Shown here: positions 1,036 to 6,760 of the stretch, piece by piece | Layout: each line of letters opens with the position of its first letter | How positions within the stretch are numbered: position 1 is the first letter of the stretch | Origin: Alphaproteobacteria bacterium | GTDB lineage: Bacteria > Pseudomonadota > Alphaproteobacteria > GCA-2746255 | NCBI GenBank assembly: GCA_965249135.1 | Contig: OZ252220.1 | Span: 1,280,001 to 1,344,000, forward strand | Length of the DNA stretch: 64,000 bases | Reading direction: 5' to 3' | Notes under the pieces: generated by a model | What the model was told of the DNA's origin: nothing | The model's input: only the letters and a program-made list of their open reading frames with translations | Databases searched by the model: none | Translations under genes and position numbers: made by a program

Positions 1036-1710
1036 TTAGCCATCGCGCAGGATTTGCAGCATCCGCAGGCGCACGGACTCGATCTTGAGCAGTTCCTCGA
1101 TGAAGTACTCGCAGTTGTCGCCGCAATCTGTCTGGCGCCATCGAATGATGGCGTCGTAGTCGATCTCCAGCAGGTCACAGAACTCCCGCCCGGTCATCGC
1201 CTCATCGAAGGCTATTCGTCGCTTAAAGCCGTTCCATATCGCTTTCCGGTCATCCTGATTGAAGGCGCAGAAGTGCGCCCGGAATCGATACTGGATGTGC
1301 TGGGCGTTGTGCTCGATGAACCCATGCATGGCCTGGCGCTCTGCGCTGGCCTTCTTGGTGTCGAACACATGGCCGTCCTTCAACTCGACGATGTGGCATG
1401 TTTGCATGCCGCCACGGCGCTTGAACACCATGAAGTCCGGTTCCGATCCGGCGAAGTCCAGGGTGGTGCTCCGCTTGATTTGGCGCTTGCGGGCGAGCAA
1501 CACGCCTTCGGGCATGATCTCCTGCTCTAGGAAGGCGTCGAGGCCGGAGATGTTGGGAACCGCTGCCACGATCATTGCTTCGAGTTCCGAGCCCGACGAG
1601 ATGACGGCGGACTGAACCTTGCTGGCCAACTCGCCTAACGCGGCATTGCCGAACAGTCGCTCGTAGGCGCCCGACGTGTTCTTGGGCTTGGCGTTCCGAA
1701 GGCGGGCCAT
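1036..1710 (-). CDS. Putative type II restriction endonuclease (PD-(D/E)xK fold)
   Basis: 224 aa with EPDFMVF...IVELKDG, a PD..(D/E)xK catalytic pattern. Starts 5 bp after the methyltransferase stop. Its TAA stop lies inside the left TIR. Confidence 0.7.
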   Translation of the reverse strand: MARLRNAKPKNTSGAYERLFGNAALGELASKVQSAVISSGSELEAMIVAAVPNISGLDAFLEQEIMPEGVLLARKRQIKRSTTLDFAGSEPDFMVFKRRGGMQTCHIVELKDGHVFDTKKASAERQAMHGFIEHNAQHIQYRFRAHFCAFNQDDRKAIWNGFKRRIAFDEAMTGREFCDLLEIDYDAIIRWRQTDCGDNCEYFIEELLKIESVRLRMLQILRDG

Positions 1711-1715
1711 GGAGC

Positions 1716-2471
1716 CTAGTCGTTCAGGTCACAGCCGAGGAAGGTGCGCCGCCTGTTCCGCGCTGCCTGAAGCACAGAGAATGAGCCGGCTGCCGGGTCG
1801 ATCACAAAATCGCCTTCGTGGCTCACGGCGGCCATTAGCTCGCCCTGAAGGTCCACCGGCTTCGTGTGCGGATGGTTGCGTTGCGAGACCTGCTCTTGAA
1901 TCACGTCCGGGATGTTGTGAATCTTCCACACGCCTTTGGCTTTGCGCGGCTGCTTCTGCAAGACGACGCAATATTCCGCCCGGCGCCGGGTGCGATAGCC
2001 CATGCCGAAAGTGCCTTTGTCCCATGTCACCAAGTCCACGATGTCGAGACTCGTTCCGTCCAGCCAAGCATGGATGCCTTGGCAGAGATGAAACTTGTCG
2101 ATCCACAGGAACAGGTGGCCGGACGGAATCAGCGCCCGGTCAATGCCGCGCACGAAGCCGCCGATCACGGCGTCGGTCATCTGCTCCAAGGCACATCTCC
2201 GCTTGCCGCGGTCCTTGCCTTCGTTGCCGTAGGACAGTTTTTCGAGCACGCCGCGATATTGCGGATCAAGGAACGCTACGGGGATAGCGTTGGCCGGAAG
2301 CACGGACAGGAACTCAAGGCCGTCCATCTTGAGCCGGACGTTTGGCTTTAGCGCATCGGGCAGCGCTAATGGCGGCGCATGGACGGTTCTTTGCCCCGAG
2401 AACACCGTCGCCGTGAGCGTGTCCATCGTTGTGTCGATAGGCTCTACAAGCTGCTTGGCTTTGCGCGGCAT
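1716..2471 (-). CDS. Site-specific DNA amino-methyltransferase (N6A/N4C, beta class)
   Basis: Motif IV variant FLDPQY near the N-terminus; HPHTKP and motif I VIDPAAGSFS near the C-terminus (beta order). ATG at 2471 follows an AAGGGG RBS. Confidence 0.88.
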   Translation of the reverse strand: MPRKAKQLVEPIDTTMDTLTATVFSGQRTVHAPPLALPDALKPNVRLKMDGLEFLSVLPANAIPVAFLDPQYRGVLEKLSYGNEGKDRGKRRCALEQMTDAVIGGFVRGIDRALIPSGHLFLWIDKFHLCQGIHAWLDGTSLDIVDLVTWDKGTFGMGYRTRRRAEYCVVLQKQPRKAKGVWKIHNIPDVIQEQVSQRNHPHTKPVDLQGELMAAVSHEGDFVIDPAAGSFSVLQAARNRRRTFLGCDLND

Positions 2472-2481
2472 GGTGTTCCCC

Positions 2482-3417
2482 TTAATCGGCGGTGAGTCCC
2501 TTGTAGCCCAGCACGCCGCCCGCGTTGCGAAGGCTCTGGTCAATATGGGCCATGGTGCCCCAGTCGCGCCGATTGTGTCGAGTGGCAAACTCATCGACAT
2601 AGCGGCCCATGTGCTTTTCGGAGAAGTGGTGGAAGGTTCCGATGTAGCCGCGCTTCAGGAGCGCCCAGAACGACTCGATGCCGTTCGTGTGTGCCATCCC
2701 GCTGACGTATTCGCCGACCGAATGCTCGACGGTCTCGTGCGTGTATTCGCCCATGCCCTGATAGGCTTTGTGGCCGTCCGTGTAGATCGTTGTGCCGGGC
2801 TTGACCTCGGAACGCACCGCGCCTTGCAGGTGCGCCGCGTCCGTCCCGTCAATCGGGCGGGCTTTGATGCGCCCAGACTTGCGCTCGCGCATTCCGATAA
2901 CCGGCTGCTTCCCGACACCGCCGCGCCCCATGCGGAGCTTCTTGTTCGAGTGCTTGTTCTTTTCCTTGCCGCCGATATAGGTCTCGTCAACCTCAACCTC
3001 ACCAGACATCGGATTGCCGACGCCGGACTTGTTCAGCCACATCTCGCGGATGCGCTGCGAAAGATACCATGCGGTTTTCTGCGTGCAGCCAAGCTCGCGG
3101 GCCATCTGGCAACTTGAGATCGACTTCTTGGCAATGACCATGAGATAGATCGCGTAGAGGCATTTGCGTGGCGACAGGTTGGCCGAATGGAACACCGTTC
3201 TGGTCGTGACCGAGAAGTGCTTGCGGCAATCCTTGCAGCGATAGGGTTGGGGGTTCTCGTTCGCGACATGGCTGATCCGAACGCTCCCGCAGTGCGGGCA
3301 GTAAGGATCGTCGCCCCAGCGCATCCGCTCGATGTGAGCCCGCGCATCCTTGTCCGTCGGGAACCGCGCCATGAAGTCCCAGGTGCTCATGATCTCGGGT
3401 TTGTTGCGCTTCGCCAT
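2482..3417 (-). CDS. IS1595-family (ISXO2-like) DDE transposase
   Basis: N-terminal Zn ribbon CPHC...CKDC; catalytic motifs VEVDETYIGG, IYTDG and HTNGIESFW. ATG at 3417 follows GGGAGA. Confidence 0.95.
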   Translation of the reverse strand: MAKRNKPEIMSTWDFMARFPTDKDARAHIERMRWGDDPYCPHCGSVRISHVANENPQPYRCKDCRKHFSVTTRTVFHSANLSPRKCLYAIYLMVIAKKSISSCQMARELGCTQKTAWYLSQRIREMWLNKSGVGNPMSGEVEVDETYIGGKEKNKHSNKKLRMGRGGVGKQPVIGMRERKSGRIKARPIDGTDAAHLQGAVRSEVKPGTTIYTDGHKAYQGMGEYTHETVEHSVGEYVSGMAHTNGIESFWALLKRGYIGTFHHFSEKHMGRYVDEFATRHNRRDWGTMAHIDQSLRNAGGVLGYKGLTAD

Positions 3418-3439
3418 GTTCTGTCTCCCCATGGCTAGA

Positions 3440-3468
3440 AATATAGGGTTACGACGGCGTAATGTCAA
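3440..3468 (-). promoter_or_regulatory. Sigma70-type promoter for the transposase-MTase-nuclease unit
   Basis: Minus strand TTGACA-N17-TATATT, 22 bp upstream of the transposase ATG. Confidence 0.7.
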
Positions 3469-3566: not shown

Positions 3567-3640
3567 TGGTTGGGGCGGCAGGATTCGAACCTGCGATCAC
3601 GGGACCAAAGCCCGTTGCCTTGCCACTTGGCTACGCCCCA
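3567..3640 (-). tRNA. tRNA-Gln (anticodon TTG)
   Basis: Minus strand reads TGGGGCGTAGCCAAGTGGCAAGGCAACGGGCTTTGGTCCCGTGATCGCAGGTTCGAATCCTGCCGCCCCAACCA, with D loop, T loop GTTCGAATC and encoded CCA. Confidence 0.97.
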
Positions 3641-3844: not shown

Positions 3845-4015
3845 ATGACCGGCTGGAAACTCGAAGGCATCTCGACGACGGCCCGTGAGGCGGCGAAGGA
3901 AGCCGCCCGGGAGCAAAAACTACCCTTGGGTGAATGGCTAAGCCGGTTGATTCTAAGGGCCTCCGAGAGCCGGAAAACGGGCCCCGGGGGGCCCGGAAAA
4001 CCGGGAGCGGATTAG
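3845..4015 (+). CDS. 56-aa microprotein made of a PodJ-like N-terminal motif (not in ORF track)
   Basis: GGGGAGGG RBS, then MTGWKLEGISTTAREAAKEAAREQKLPLGEWLSRLILRASESRKTGPGGPGKPGAD*. Same motif as the N-termini of the next two genes. Confidence 0.75.
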   Translation: MTGWKLEGISTTAREAAKEAAREQKLPLGEWLSRLILRASESRKTGPGGPGKPGAD

Positions 4016-4036
4016 CCCTACGCCGCACTACTTTTC

Positions 4037-4065
4037 TTGACTTGGGTAGCGCCACCCCTTACATT
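4037..4065 (+). promoter_or_regulatory. Sigma70-like promoter upstream of 4136 gene
   Basis: TTGACT-N17-TACATT. Confidence 0.5.
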
Positions 4066-4135
4066 TCGCCCGTTTTGTTGGACCGTTAACGAACCCCGGC
4101 CAAGGGAGACGGATCACCAATTAAGGCGAGGTCGG

Positions 4136-4651
4136 ATGGCTTCCCAGTCGCCCTGGAGCATTAAAGGCATCGATCCGGAAGCGCGCGAGGCCGCCAAGAT
4201 GGCGGCCTGCAAGGCCGGTATGACCCTTGGCGGCTGGCTCACCCGGACCATCCTTGCCATCGCCGCCCACGAGCTCAAGCGGGACGGCGGCAAGAAGGCG
4301 CCGCCGGAATGGGCGGAGAGCGACGGTCCCGACCTTTCGGCCCCCTCGCCGCCGGCGCTGACGGAGCAGGCGATCCTCAAAAGCATCCAGCAGCTCATCC
4401 AGCGGGTCGAGCATATCGAGCAGGTGACCCAGGAGACGATCGCGGCGATCACCGAGAAGGTCGGGGAACTCGCCGAACGCATCCAGGAGGTGAACGAGAA
4501 GACCGGTCTTACCTCCGGCCCGATGGAGCGGGCGCTACAACGATTGTCGGAACGGATGGACCATCTGGATGCGGAAGAAGCACCGTCGCCCGAGGAGGCC
4601 CATCCCCGGCACCGCCGCCGCCGCTTCGCCCGCATGTTCAACCTTCCCTGA
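4136..4651 (+). CDS. PodJ-like N-terminal motif plus coiled-coil protein
   Basis: MASQSPWSIKGIDPEAREAAKMAACKAGMTLGGWLTRTI resembles the PodJ N-terminus as I recall it; followed by a heptad-rich helix. Confidence 0.75.
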   Translation: MASQSPWSIKGIDPEAREAAKMAACKAGMTLGGWLTRTILAIAAHELKRDGGKKAPPEWAESDGPDLSAPSPPALTEQAILKSIQQLIQRVEHIEQVTQETIAAITEKVGELAERIQEVNEKTGLTSGPMERALQRLSERMDHLDAEEAPSPEEAHPRHRRRRFARMFNLP

Positions 4652-4664
4652 AGGAGAGCCTCTT

Positions 4665-5849
4665 ATGACGACGCAAGGGGCCTGGTACCCGAAGGGCGTC
4701 GGCCCGGAAGCCAGGCGGGCGGCAAAGGAGGCGGCGAAACGGGCCGGCGTGCCGATCGGGCAATGGGTCGAGGCGATGATCCTTCGCCACACCCGAAGCC
4801 CAGGCCTTAAGACCCGCCCTAGCCCGGAGGCCCGAAAGGCTCCGGAGTTCGAACTCCTCTCCCGCGAAGAGCCGATGGAGGAAATGGGAGGCGGGCGCTA
4901 CCCGGCACTGCCTCCACGCCGGATCCACCGGCAGCTCTGCTGGCTGGCCGGCGGGTCCCTGGTCATGCTCATCTTCCTTATCGTAGGCTTCGGGCTTTTC
5001 TGGATCGGGCAGCAGCAGGAAGCCCAACCCCAGCGGACCGCCGACGCGCAAGCCAAGCCTTCGCCGCCGACGGATCTCAGCCGGGCCACGTTGAACCAGA
5101 TCCGCAGTGCCGCCCAGGCCGGCGACCGGGAGGCCCAGTTCACCCTCGGTGCGCGCTACGCGCTGGGCGAGTGGGTGCCCAAGGACGAGCTGGCCGCCGC
5201 CGACTGGTTCGAGAAGGCGGCCCTTCAGGGCCACCCGGAGGCCCAATACCGGTTAGGGCTCCTCTACGAGGAAGGGCGCGTCGTCGCGCAGAACCTTTTC
5301 GAAGCCTTCTTCTGGTTCCAAAGCGCGGCCGACCAGGGCCACCTCGAATCCTAGTTCAAGGCCGGCGTCGCCTATGCGGAAGGCATCGGCATCGGCGAGG
5401 ATCCGAAGAAGGCGGCAACGTGGCTGCTGGCCAGCGCCGAGCGCGACCACGCCGGCGCCATGGTTCGCCTGGCCGAACTTTACGATCGCGGCGAAGGGGT
5501 GGCGAAGGACCCGGAGGCGGCGGCCCGCTGGAAGGCGATGGCTGCCGCCATCGCGCCCGAGGAAAAACCGGGAAAGACGGATGTCCAGATCGTCATCCTC
5601 GACAAGGCGCCGATGCCTAGCGGCCTGGAGGCGGCGCTGGATCCGCGCGCGCTCGAGACGATGGAGCGGCTGCTCGCCGGGCTCGGTTTCGAGCCGGGCC
5701 CCGTCGACGGGGCCGTCACGGACGAGACGGTGGCGGCGATCCGACTCTATCAAGCCTTCGCGGGCCTTGAGGTCGATGGCCGGCCCAGCGCGCTCCTCCT
5801 CGAAGAGTTGCGTCAGGTGTCCCAGACGGCGGGGCTGAAGCTGAACTGA
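4665..5849 (+). pseudogene. PodJ-like membrane protein (N motif, TM helix, Sel1 repeats, peptidoglycan-binding domain) interrupted by in-frame TAG at 5352-5354
   Basis: Reading continues in frame across the stop: GHLES*FKAGVAYAEGIGIGEDPKKAATWLL...MVRLAELYDRGEGV. Earlier Sel1 repeats have Q at the stop position. C-terminal GFEPGPVDGAVTDETVAAIRLYQ is a PG-binding motif. Confidence 0.75.
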
Positions 5850-5869: not shown

Positions 5870-6760
5870 TCACGCGCCGGAAAGAAGCTCCGTCGCCGCG
5901 ATCCACCAGTTGGGGTGGGAATTTAAGAGCGCTTTCGCCGCCGCTTCGGCCGCGAGGCGGTCGCCATAGAGCCCGAAGCAGGTCGTCCCGCTTCCCGACA
6001 TCCGCGAAAGCAGGCAATGGGGCGTGCCGGCGATGGCCGAAAGCACGCCGGCGATCTCCGGCGCGAGCGCGACGGCGGCCTCCGTGAGATCGTTGCGCCG
6101 GGCCTTCAAATAGAGCGCGAGCGCCGCCGCATCCTTGGGCAAGGCCTGGCAAGCGGCGGGTTTCGACACCGTCCCCCCATGGGCCTTAAAGACGGCCGCC
6201 GTCGAAAGGGCCGCGCCCGGATTGACCAGAACGAGACCGGCCAAGGGGAGCCCCTGAACCGGCGTCAGTATCTCGCCGACGCCGCCGACGAAGGCCGGGC
6301 GGCCTTCGATGCAGACAGGCACGTCCATGCCGAGTTCGAGACCAAGGTTTTGAAGCGCGGGCGCCTCAACGCCAAGCCCCCAAAGTCGGGTGAGACCCAA
6401 AAGCGTCGCCGCCGCATCCGCCGAGCCGCCGCCGAGGCCGGCCGCGACAGGCAGGTTCTTGGTCAGCGTGATCGCCGCGCCATCGTTCACATGGTGAAGC
6501 CGGCCCAGATGACGGGCGGCCCGAAGCACGAGGTTGTCGTCGAGGTCCACCTCGCCAAGGGCGGCGGCAAAGGGGCCGCGAAGCACAAGGCTCAACGTGT
6601 CGTCCGGGCGAAAGGCGAGTTCGTCGTGGAGCCTCGCGAAGACGACGAGACTGTCGAGCAGATGGTACCCGTCTTTGCGGACGCCGGTGACGTGGAGGTA
6701 GAGATTGAGTTTCACCGGTGCCGTAAGATGAAATTCGCCGCGAACCGTCTTTTCCGTCAC
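5870..6760 (-). CDS. ispE: 4-diphosphocytidyl-2-C-methyl-D-erythritol kinase
   Basis: APVKLNLYLHV, GYHLLDSL, PVAAGLGGGSADAA, MSGSG motifs. Confidence 0.96.
   Translation of the reverse strand: MTEKTVRGEFHLTAPVKLNLYLHVTGVRKDGYHLLDSLVVFARLHDELAFRPDDTLSLVLRGPFAAALGEVDLDDNLVLRAARHLGRLHHVNDGAAITLTKNLPVAAGLGGGSADAAATLLGLTRLWGLGVEAPALQNLGLELGMDVPVCIEGRPAFVGGVGEILTPVQGLPLAGLVLVNPGAALSTAAVFKAHGGTVSKPAACQALPKDAAALALYLKARRNDLTEAAVALAPEIAGVLSAIAGTPHCLLSRMSGSGTTCFGLYGDRLAAEAAAKALLNSHPNWWIAATELLSGA

Follow-up and report, generated by a model that had tools for sequence, protein, structure and literature searches.

Three tandem genes sharing a PodJ-type N-terminal module form a probable paralogue cassette in Alphaproteobacteria

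The window analysed here is a stretch of 64,000 nucleotides from an Alphaproteobacteria bacterium (contig OZ252220.1, positions 1,280,001 to 1,344,000), and it contains three tandem genes, genes 1 to 3 (Table 1), whose products share one N-terminal module. The three genes are paralogues. They very probably represent a conserved paralogue cassette of the PodJ family (probability 0.85–0.9), and comparison among species indicates an old triplication that is present in many of them and is not peculiar to this genome. PodJ is a central polarity scaffold of Alphaproteobacteria. We propose that the three proteins build an envelope scaffold by pairing through their modules, a mechanism to which we assign, as a whole, a probability of about 0.5.

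The module comprises about 45 residues and is N-terminal in all three genes. The three N-termini quoted in a preliminary description of this DNA are exact and begin at positions 3845, 4136 and 4665, and they can be aligned without internal gaps at 40–42% identity to gene 1. Thirteen positions are invariant across the three modules (W4, G8, A13, R14, A16, A17, K18, A20, A21, G29, W31, I36 and L37), and all three genes carry the conserved module whose pattern in PodJ is PWSVKGI..PEAR...G.TLG.WL. The strand residues differ, reading WKLEGI in gene 1, WSIKGI in gene 2 and WYPKGV in gene 3. The genome, a single contig of 2.12 Mb that is 98.75% complete, was searched in all six frames. Residues 1–45 of gene 2 gave only three matches, with E values of 2.7e-26 (self), 1.5e-7 and 2.1e-6, and a profile of 22 module sequences gave the same three places at 1.2e-24, 6.9e-22 and 5.9e-20, the next best being 0.75. 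Since the only three matches in the genome all lie at this locus, the paralogy is real and there is no further copy of the module. The same profile found no full-length podJ elsewhere in the genome, a check that the preliminary description had proposed. At a threshold of E≤1, neither Pfam nor NCBIfam has a model that matches the module or gene 1 as a whole. Among 1.84 billion representative proteins, clustered at 50% identity, the module profile matches 3175 clusters with E≤1e-3, and with E≤1e-10 it still matches 1298; the best 149 of the 3175 clusters were examined.

Of these 149, 21 are longer than 600 residues, and 20 of the 21 have Sel1 near the C-terminus; PG_binding_1 is also present in 13 of the 20. 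The profile thus heads proteins of 730–1261 residues with Sel1 and PG_binding_1, one of which NCBI names 'peptidoglycan-binding protein'. Two members of the cassette match the two ends of such a protein of 1030 residues. Gene 2 aligns to its residues 6–160 (34% identity, E 1e-22), and an intact strain variant of gene 3 (388 residues) aligns to its residues 752–1025 (33% identity, E 4e-27), while the module of this variant aligns to residues 7–42. Five of 21 gene 2 homologues bear the JGI label 'localization factor PodJL'. The names and the Sel1 domains of the long module proteins uphold the earlier assignment of the N-terminus to the PodJ type.

Compared with PodJ of Caulobacter crescentus and its homologues in Agrobacterium and Sinorhizobium, the cassette has the module and the first coiled coil, and gene 3 is the counterpart of the single membrane span, the periplasmic Sel1 region and the C-terminal PG_binding_1 domain, although it is whole only if an in-frame TAG is read through. 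In Sinorhizobium meliloti Rm1021, podJ1 reportedly ends early. PodJ is one chain of about 950–1260 residues, whereas the cassette distributes the parts over three genes that all carry a module of their own, and the long coiled-coil and disordered client-binding region that PodJ carries in its membrane-span chain has no match in the cassette. According to excerpts of two studies, the middle of Caulobacter PodJ contains further coiled coils (CC1–6) and a disordered region that recruits PleC (PMC9684454, PMC8980812). PodJ accumulates at the pole only if it has residues 1–249, and its periplasmic part influences pili; the first 249 residues, which drive self-assembly at the pole, are presented in the same excerpts solely as coiled coils (PMC8980812, PMC9684454).

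The triad is conserved well beyond this genome. A collection with one genome per species, searched with an alignment of eight closer module rows, yielded 392 stretches with a relative of the gene 2 module, and among the best 80 of these loci 26 have three tandem modules on the same strand, while the others hold two modules (3 loci) or a single one (51 loci). All 26 triads keep the small-medium-large order and the strand, with 54–157 residues for gene 1, 130–250 for gene 2 and 128 to at least 989 for gene 3; in most of the other triad species gene 1 is longer, and gene 3, with 350 to at least 989 residues, retains more cytoplasmic sequence, than here. The third genes contain Sel1 in 22 of 26 cases and PG_binding_1 in 20 of 26. 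A tRNA-Gln lies upstream of 23 of the 26 triads, a TPR gene flanks 15, and a homologue of the GHMP kinase follows downstream on the opposite strand in 21, so the synteny with tRNA-Gln and ispE that had been put forward for checking is confirmed. Within the genus, the full triad is found in three genomes (G001, G002 and G005), and in G003 a contig breaks off after genes 1 and 2; G004, an assembly of about 300 contigs with 96% completeness, gave no match. A phylogeny was also built from 138 modules and, with 47 columns, is poorly resolved. In it the gene 1 and gene 3 modules each cluster by type (3 label changes each among 29 rows, against about 26 when shuffled), and the gene 2 modules are intermixed with single-copy PodJ modules, a grouping that suggests a single, old triplication in which gene 2 has stayed closest to the ancestral N-terminus.

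Gene 2 is the best-conserved member of the cassette and the closest to canonical PodJ. When its module is compared among 29 species, 19 columns are invariant, including the strand Ser and Lys. The product counts 171 residues from the ATG, and a domain search gave only weak, sub-threshold matches to families of the coiled-coil type. The C-terminal tail is basic and hydrophobic (RRRRFARMFNLP, residues 160–171, nucleotides 4613–4648), as it is in all 26 gene 2-like proteins, and could serve as a membrane-targeting or partner-binding peptide. Examples of such tails elsewhere are GLLGRLFGRD, KGFLGLFRRD, RRRLFGLLR and RFARMFNLP. In six related loci (L048, L051, L055, L058, L060 and L100), a gene 2-like gene is the sole member between the tRNA-Gln and the kinase. 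The invariant columns, the universal tail and these six loci are signs that gene 2 is the core of the set.

Gene 1 has a GGGAGGG 6 nucleotides upstream of its ATG and is exactly 56 codons long in all five genomes of the genus that hold the locus; its tail evolves fast while the length is kept. The ratio of nonsynonymous to synonymous substitution (dN/dS) is 0.15–0.45 in 8 of 10 pairs, those in which dS is not saturated, which indicates that gene 1 is under purifying selection. No RNA data set with the gene was listed among 23 runs. The exact sequence is a called protein in NCBI and ENA records, and the orthologue in a sister species is the 'hypothetical protein' MCE2509773.1. Thus the conservation expected for this short open reading frame is borne out, while its description as an unannotated microprotein has to be withdrawn.

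A promoter-like site of the form TTGACT-17-TACATT stands before gene 2, with one site found against 0.1 expected from shuffles, and the CTTGAC of the −35 region together with the preceding 25 nucleotides is conserved in the five genomes of the genus. The 30 nucleotides after the gene 1 stop (4016–4045, TAGCCCTACGCCGCACTACTTTTCTTGAC) are nearly invariant in these genomes; they contain CTAC twice, 10 nucleotides apart, and the adjoining coding tail of gene 1 evolves fast. Other lineages have a lineage-specific promoter-like pair, TTAACA/TATAGT, ahead of gene 3. K-mer and motif counts over the spacers between the genes of 29 triads showed no repeat, palindrome or motif common to them. Four of the 29 have sites resembling the CtrA box upstream of gene 1, and no DnaA boxes were found.

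Gene 3, with GAAGGAG in front of its start, encodes a hydrophobic span at residues 91–115 (nucleotides 4935–5009), four Sel1 repeats and a PG_binding_1 domain (about nucleotides 5655–5804, E 5.7e-11). The basic sequence PPRRIHRQ just before the span suggests that the module is cytoplasmic and that the Sel1 and peptidoglycan-binding parts are periplasmic. The domains listed for gene 3 in the preliminary description are therefore present, but the frame is cut by an in-frame TAG that it had missed. Sel1 is matched both ahead of the TAG (E 2e-19) and beyond it (E 4.6e-10), and the stop divides the gene into pieces of 229 and at least 129 residues; the exact sequences of a 229-residue N-piece and a 129-residue C-piece are called as separate proteins in NCBI and ENA records. 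All five close relatives seen (P0215, P0216, P0218, P0219 and P0220) have Gln at this place (...HLESQFK...), so the change is one from CAG to TAG. The 90% cluster of the N-piece contains two intact members of 388 residues, and intact orthologues in sister species have 382–407 residues. Run X1, probably derived from the source sample, has a contig with the same sequence as the window at a depth of 3.9; three runs of other studies (X3, X4 and X6), about 97% alike, also span the position, and a metagenome scan with gene 3 gave two loci, both ending short of the TAG position. The stop may be a real mutation or an assembly error. As it stands, the gene would yield at most a truncated product with the module, the membrane span and two Sel1 repeats, and without the peptidoglycan-binding domain.

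Gene 3-like genes are also broken in 3 of the 26 other triads, which may reflect relaxed selection or poor assemblies. One has a frameshift (L061:4442–6010), one a frameshift and a stop (L064:4411–6000) and one two stops and a frameshift (L066:1864–3445); genes 1 and 2 remain open in all three, which are metagenome-assembled genomes. The gene 3-like gene of L059, the closest relative, is intact with 497 residues.

Structure prediction supports a strand-helix-helix fold of about 45 residues that resembles the ribbon-helix-helix (RHH) fold. The AlphaFold2 (AF2) model of the module, from a 22-row alignment, has a predicted local distance difference test score (pLDDT) of 86.3 and consists of an extended N-terminus and two helices (14–26 and 31–47). 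In a Foldseek search of the PDB, almost all the rows shown are RHH proteins with template modelling (TM) scores of 0.6–0.8, including the RHH domain of PutA (0.76), Arc, NikA, VapB12, CopG, ParG, FitA and AtaR; none of them reaches E≤1e-3, the best E being 0.26. VIA-align against 48,161 representative chains returned 20 chains with Z≥5 (5.1–6.3), and the top 20 are all of the RHH type. Z values below 8 are common according to the tool, and the RHH assignment is thus consistent but statistically weak. The neighbours in ESM Atlas include RHH_1, HicB and TacA clusters at 0.90–0.91, which serve as leads only, and the best hit of a sequence-profile search of the PDB (E 0.22) is not an RHH protein. 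A G-M-T turn lies between the helices of the module, and it fits the G-x-S/T turn that is typical of DNA-binding RHH proteins. Compared with Arc, CopG, MetJ, the N-terminal domain of PutA and antitoxins, the module agrees in size, in the strand-helix-helix order and in the G-x-T turn. In contrast, it has no sequence-level match to the RHH families of Pfam or to the PDB, possesses its own conserved W7 and W34, and sits on scaffold and envelope proteins instead of repressors. The RHH resemblance that the preliminary description drew from the sequence accordingly holds at the level of the fold, and of its wider interpretation the PodJ type, the fold and the synteny stood, whereas the unannotated microprotein did not.

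An RHH unit is complete only as two copies with paired N-terminal strands, which makes the module a candidate pairing device. A family with two modules per chain (P0030, 34 proteins at E≤1e-3) was folded by AF2 from a 29-row alignment. The model has a mean pLDDT of 72.5, with both modules above 90, and contains only two strands, at residues 8–10 and 95–97. Its residues 5–140 superpose on the 102–112-residue chains of the F-plasmid relaxosome (9f0x to 9f12), which we take to be TraY, with Z values of 8.3–8.8 over 93–100 residues and root-mean-square deviations of 2.8–3.5, and further on the permuted single-chain Arc 1u9p (Z 7.7), DndE (Z 6.2) and AvtR (Z 5.2). The predicted P0030 chain can thus be likened to the single-chain tandem RHH proteins (the relaxosome chains, Arc 1u9p and AvtR; 83–100 residues aligned), and its strands and this superposition predict that both modules fold together into a single RHH2 unit. 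The proteins of the window have one module each, so that pairing would take place between chains. In a second lineage (G022), a gene 1-like module and a gene 2-like module with its coiled coil are fused in one protein of 261 residues (P0103, seven relatives), a possible hint at pairing between genes 1 and 2. The strand motif of the two-module 261-residue protein of G022 is LRVEDLDPEAR, which lacks the Trp. It belongs to another family, which carries four or five modules in consecutive genes of that genome (L016:1423–2208, minus strand, and its neighbours).

We therefore envisage an ancient cassette of three PodJ-family paralogues that is fixed between tRNA-Gln and ispE in a group of mostly uncultured Alphaproteobacteria. 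Gene 2 would give a cytoplasmic coiled-coil piece with its basic-hydrophobic tail, and gene 3 the membrane span together with Sel1 and the peptidoglycan-binding domain in the periplasm. Gene 1 would be the minimal, module-only subunit that pairs with, caps or regulates the other two. The three proteins might jointly replace one PodJ of about 1000 residues and build an assembly that is anchored in the envelope and probably linked to Tad/Cpa pili and PopZ. The genome encodes RcpC/CpaB, a component of the Tad/Cpa pilus, and DUF2497 (PF10691), the PopZ family; FliG_C was not found in it, and was detected in four control genomes. This genome context makes it plausible that the cassette acts at a pole that bears pili.

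Several observations weigh against this explanation. About 590 residues in the middle of the 1030-residue PodJ-type protein have no counterpart in genes 2 and 3, which makes functional equivalence with PodJ doubtful. Gene 3 is broken in this genome and in three other triads, and together with the six loci that have gene 2 only this means that the three parts are not an obligate unit. Many lineages show an apparent promoter for each gene. The fold matches of a 48-residue model are statistically weak (Foldseek E 0.26, Z below 8), and none of the three proteins matches an RHH family of Pfam or NCBIfam at E≤1. The pairing model comes from two-module proteins of other lineages and not from the proteins of the window, and because the strand residues differ and the strand of gene 3 contains a proline, free cross-pairing among the three is not assured.

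The same fold can be read in another way, in which the module binds DNA as a functional RHH domain, the product of gene 1, of the size of Arc or CopG, represses the locus, and genes 2 and 3 tether DNA to a coiled-coil scaffold or to the envelope. The support for the RHH fold, the G-M-T turn and the invariance of the strand Ser and Lys of gene 2 across 29 species agree with DNA binding, as does the genus-wide conservation of the 30 nucleotides past the gene 1 stop around the promoter-like site. The strand of gene 1, however, has a Glu in this genus (WKLEGI), and the k-mer and motif counts revealed no repeat or palindrome that the 29 triads share between their genes. In one family a complete ParB (ParB_N, HTH_ParB and ParB_C) is fused to three degenerate modules, which speaks for a link to DNA, but these modules are without the strand motif. 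The fusions, P0033 and P0228, have 437–440 residues and lie on contigs of up to 414 kb; their N-terminal 170 residues contain three degenerate copies of the two helices of the module without the WSVKG strand. In Agrobacterium without PodJ, the replication origins shift from the old pole, yet chromatin immunoprecipitation sequencing (ChIP-seq) with a fusion of PodJ to green fluorescent protein (GFP) showed enrichment 'barely above the background' for ori1 and ori2; in the excerpted account the effect is judged indirect (PMC9239152). We regard a working DNA-binding module at this locus as unlikely. It is also rather improbable that the extreme N-terminus of the PodJ family at large is a true RHH DNA-binding domain through which PodJ-type proteins contact DNA at the envelope or the pole. 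Were it so, three RHH subunits (soluble, coiled-coil and membrane-anchored) would mix into homodimers and heterodimers with different targets and tethering, the 56-residue protein would be a free repressor or would cap the others and so detach DNA or the scaffold from the membrane, and the ParB fusions would represent a further use of the module.

The broken gene 3, here and in 3 of 26 other triads, and the fact that gene 2 matches one end of a canonical PodJ-type protein and gene 3 the other might suggest that the three genes are functionless, decaying fragments of one former podJ that high G+C content keeps open. But each gene has its own module, start codon and Shine-Dalgarno-like site, which a simple split would not yield, the triad order is kept in 26 species loci, and close strains have an intact gene 3 of 388 residues. 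Gene 1 keeps exactly 56 codons with the low dN/dS reported above, and the gene 2 module keeps its 19 invariant columns, so that decay is very improbable for the set and largely refuted for genes 1 and 2. The structural matches further include VapB12, TacA, MazE and ParD, and the ESM Atlas clusters HicB and TacA, which would fit gene 1 as an antitoxin of the RHH type with a partner toxin. No neighbouring gene resembles a toxin, however, the adjoining genes being the tRNA-Gln and the paralogous gene 2, no NCBIfam antitoxin model is matched, and the locus lies on the chromosome with its synteny kept in many species, which does not suit a mobile toxin-antitoxin pair. This last reading is hardly credible, and a paralogous PodJ-family scaffold set accounts better for what was seen. 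The shared module and the domains stood up to the analysis, and the corrections to the original observation concern the frame of gene 3 and the annotation of gene 1.

Table 1. Coordinates of the cassette and its neighbours in the window.
Feature	Position	Strand	Remarks
tRNA-Gln (anticodon TTG)	3567..3640	-	ARAGORN; conserved upstream neighbour of the cassette
Gene 1, 56 residues: module (residues 1–38) and fast-evolving 18-residue tail	3845..4015	+	
Promoter-like site TTGACT-17-TACATT before gene 2	4037..4065	+	sigma-70-like
Gene 2, 171 residues: module (1–48), coiled-coil-like helical region (about 72–145), C-terminal tail	4136..4651	+	
Gene 3, 394 codons, interrupted in this genome	4665..5849	+	module, membrane span, Sel1, PG_binding_1
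In-frame TAG, codon 230 of gene 3, inside a Sel1 repeat	5352..5354	+	
GHMP-kinase gene (ispE in the preliminary description)	5870..6760	-	GHMP_kinases_N and GHMP_kinases_C; conserved downstream neighbour

Genes 2 and 3 are separated by 13 nucleotides in this genome (4651–4665) and by 111 nucleotides in the sister species G002 (L025:4020–4133), and runs X3, X4 and X6 show small insertions or deletions relative to the window in this gap. On the other side of the cassette, about 2.5 kb (1036–3468) lie between a flavoprotein-like gene (2–991) and the tRNA-Gln. This region contains, all on the minus strand, an open reading frame without a Pfam match (1036–1710), a DNA methylase (N6_N4_Mtase, 1716–2600) and a transposase of the IS1595 type (2482–3468). 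In G002, G003 and G005 the tRNA lies within about 300 nucleotides of the flavoprotein-like gene, so that 1036–3468 looks like a strain-specific insertion beside the tRNA gene.

The PodJ family and its parts are already known. The three-paralogue cassette, the RHH-like module, the two-module chains and the use of the module in ParB fusions appear to be undescribed: a literature search that left subscription papers and bioRxiv supplements outside its scope found no account of an RHH N-terminus of PodJ or of a tandem or split PodJ set. Specialists may already know the fold from public AlphaFold models of PodJ. The module defines a large domain family, with the 3175 clusters above, for which there is no curated model, and the combination of the ParB fusion with the origin phenotype of Agrobacterium makes a possible link to DNA of interest. 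Should the first 45 residues indeed pair in the RHH manner, they would provide a structural handle on the nucleation of PodJ. The triad offers a natural dissection of the scaffold, in which the module occurs alone and soluble, joined to a coiled coil, or joined to the envelope part.

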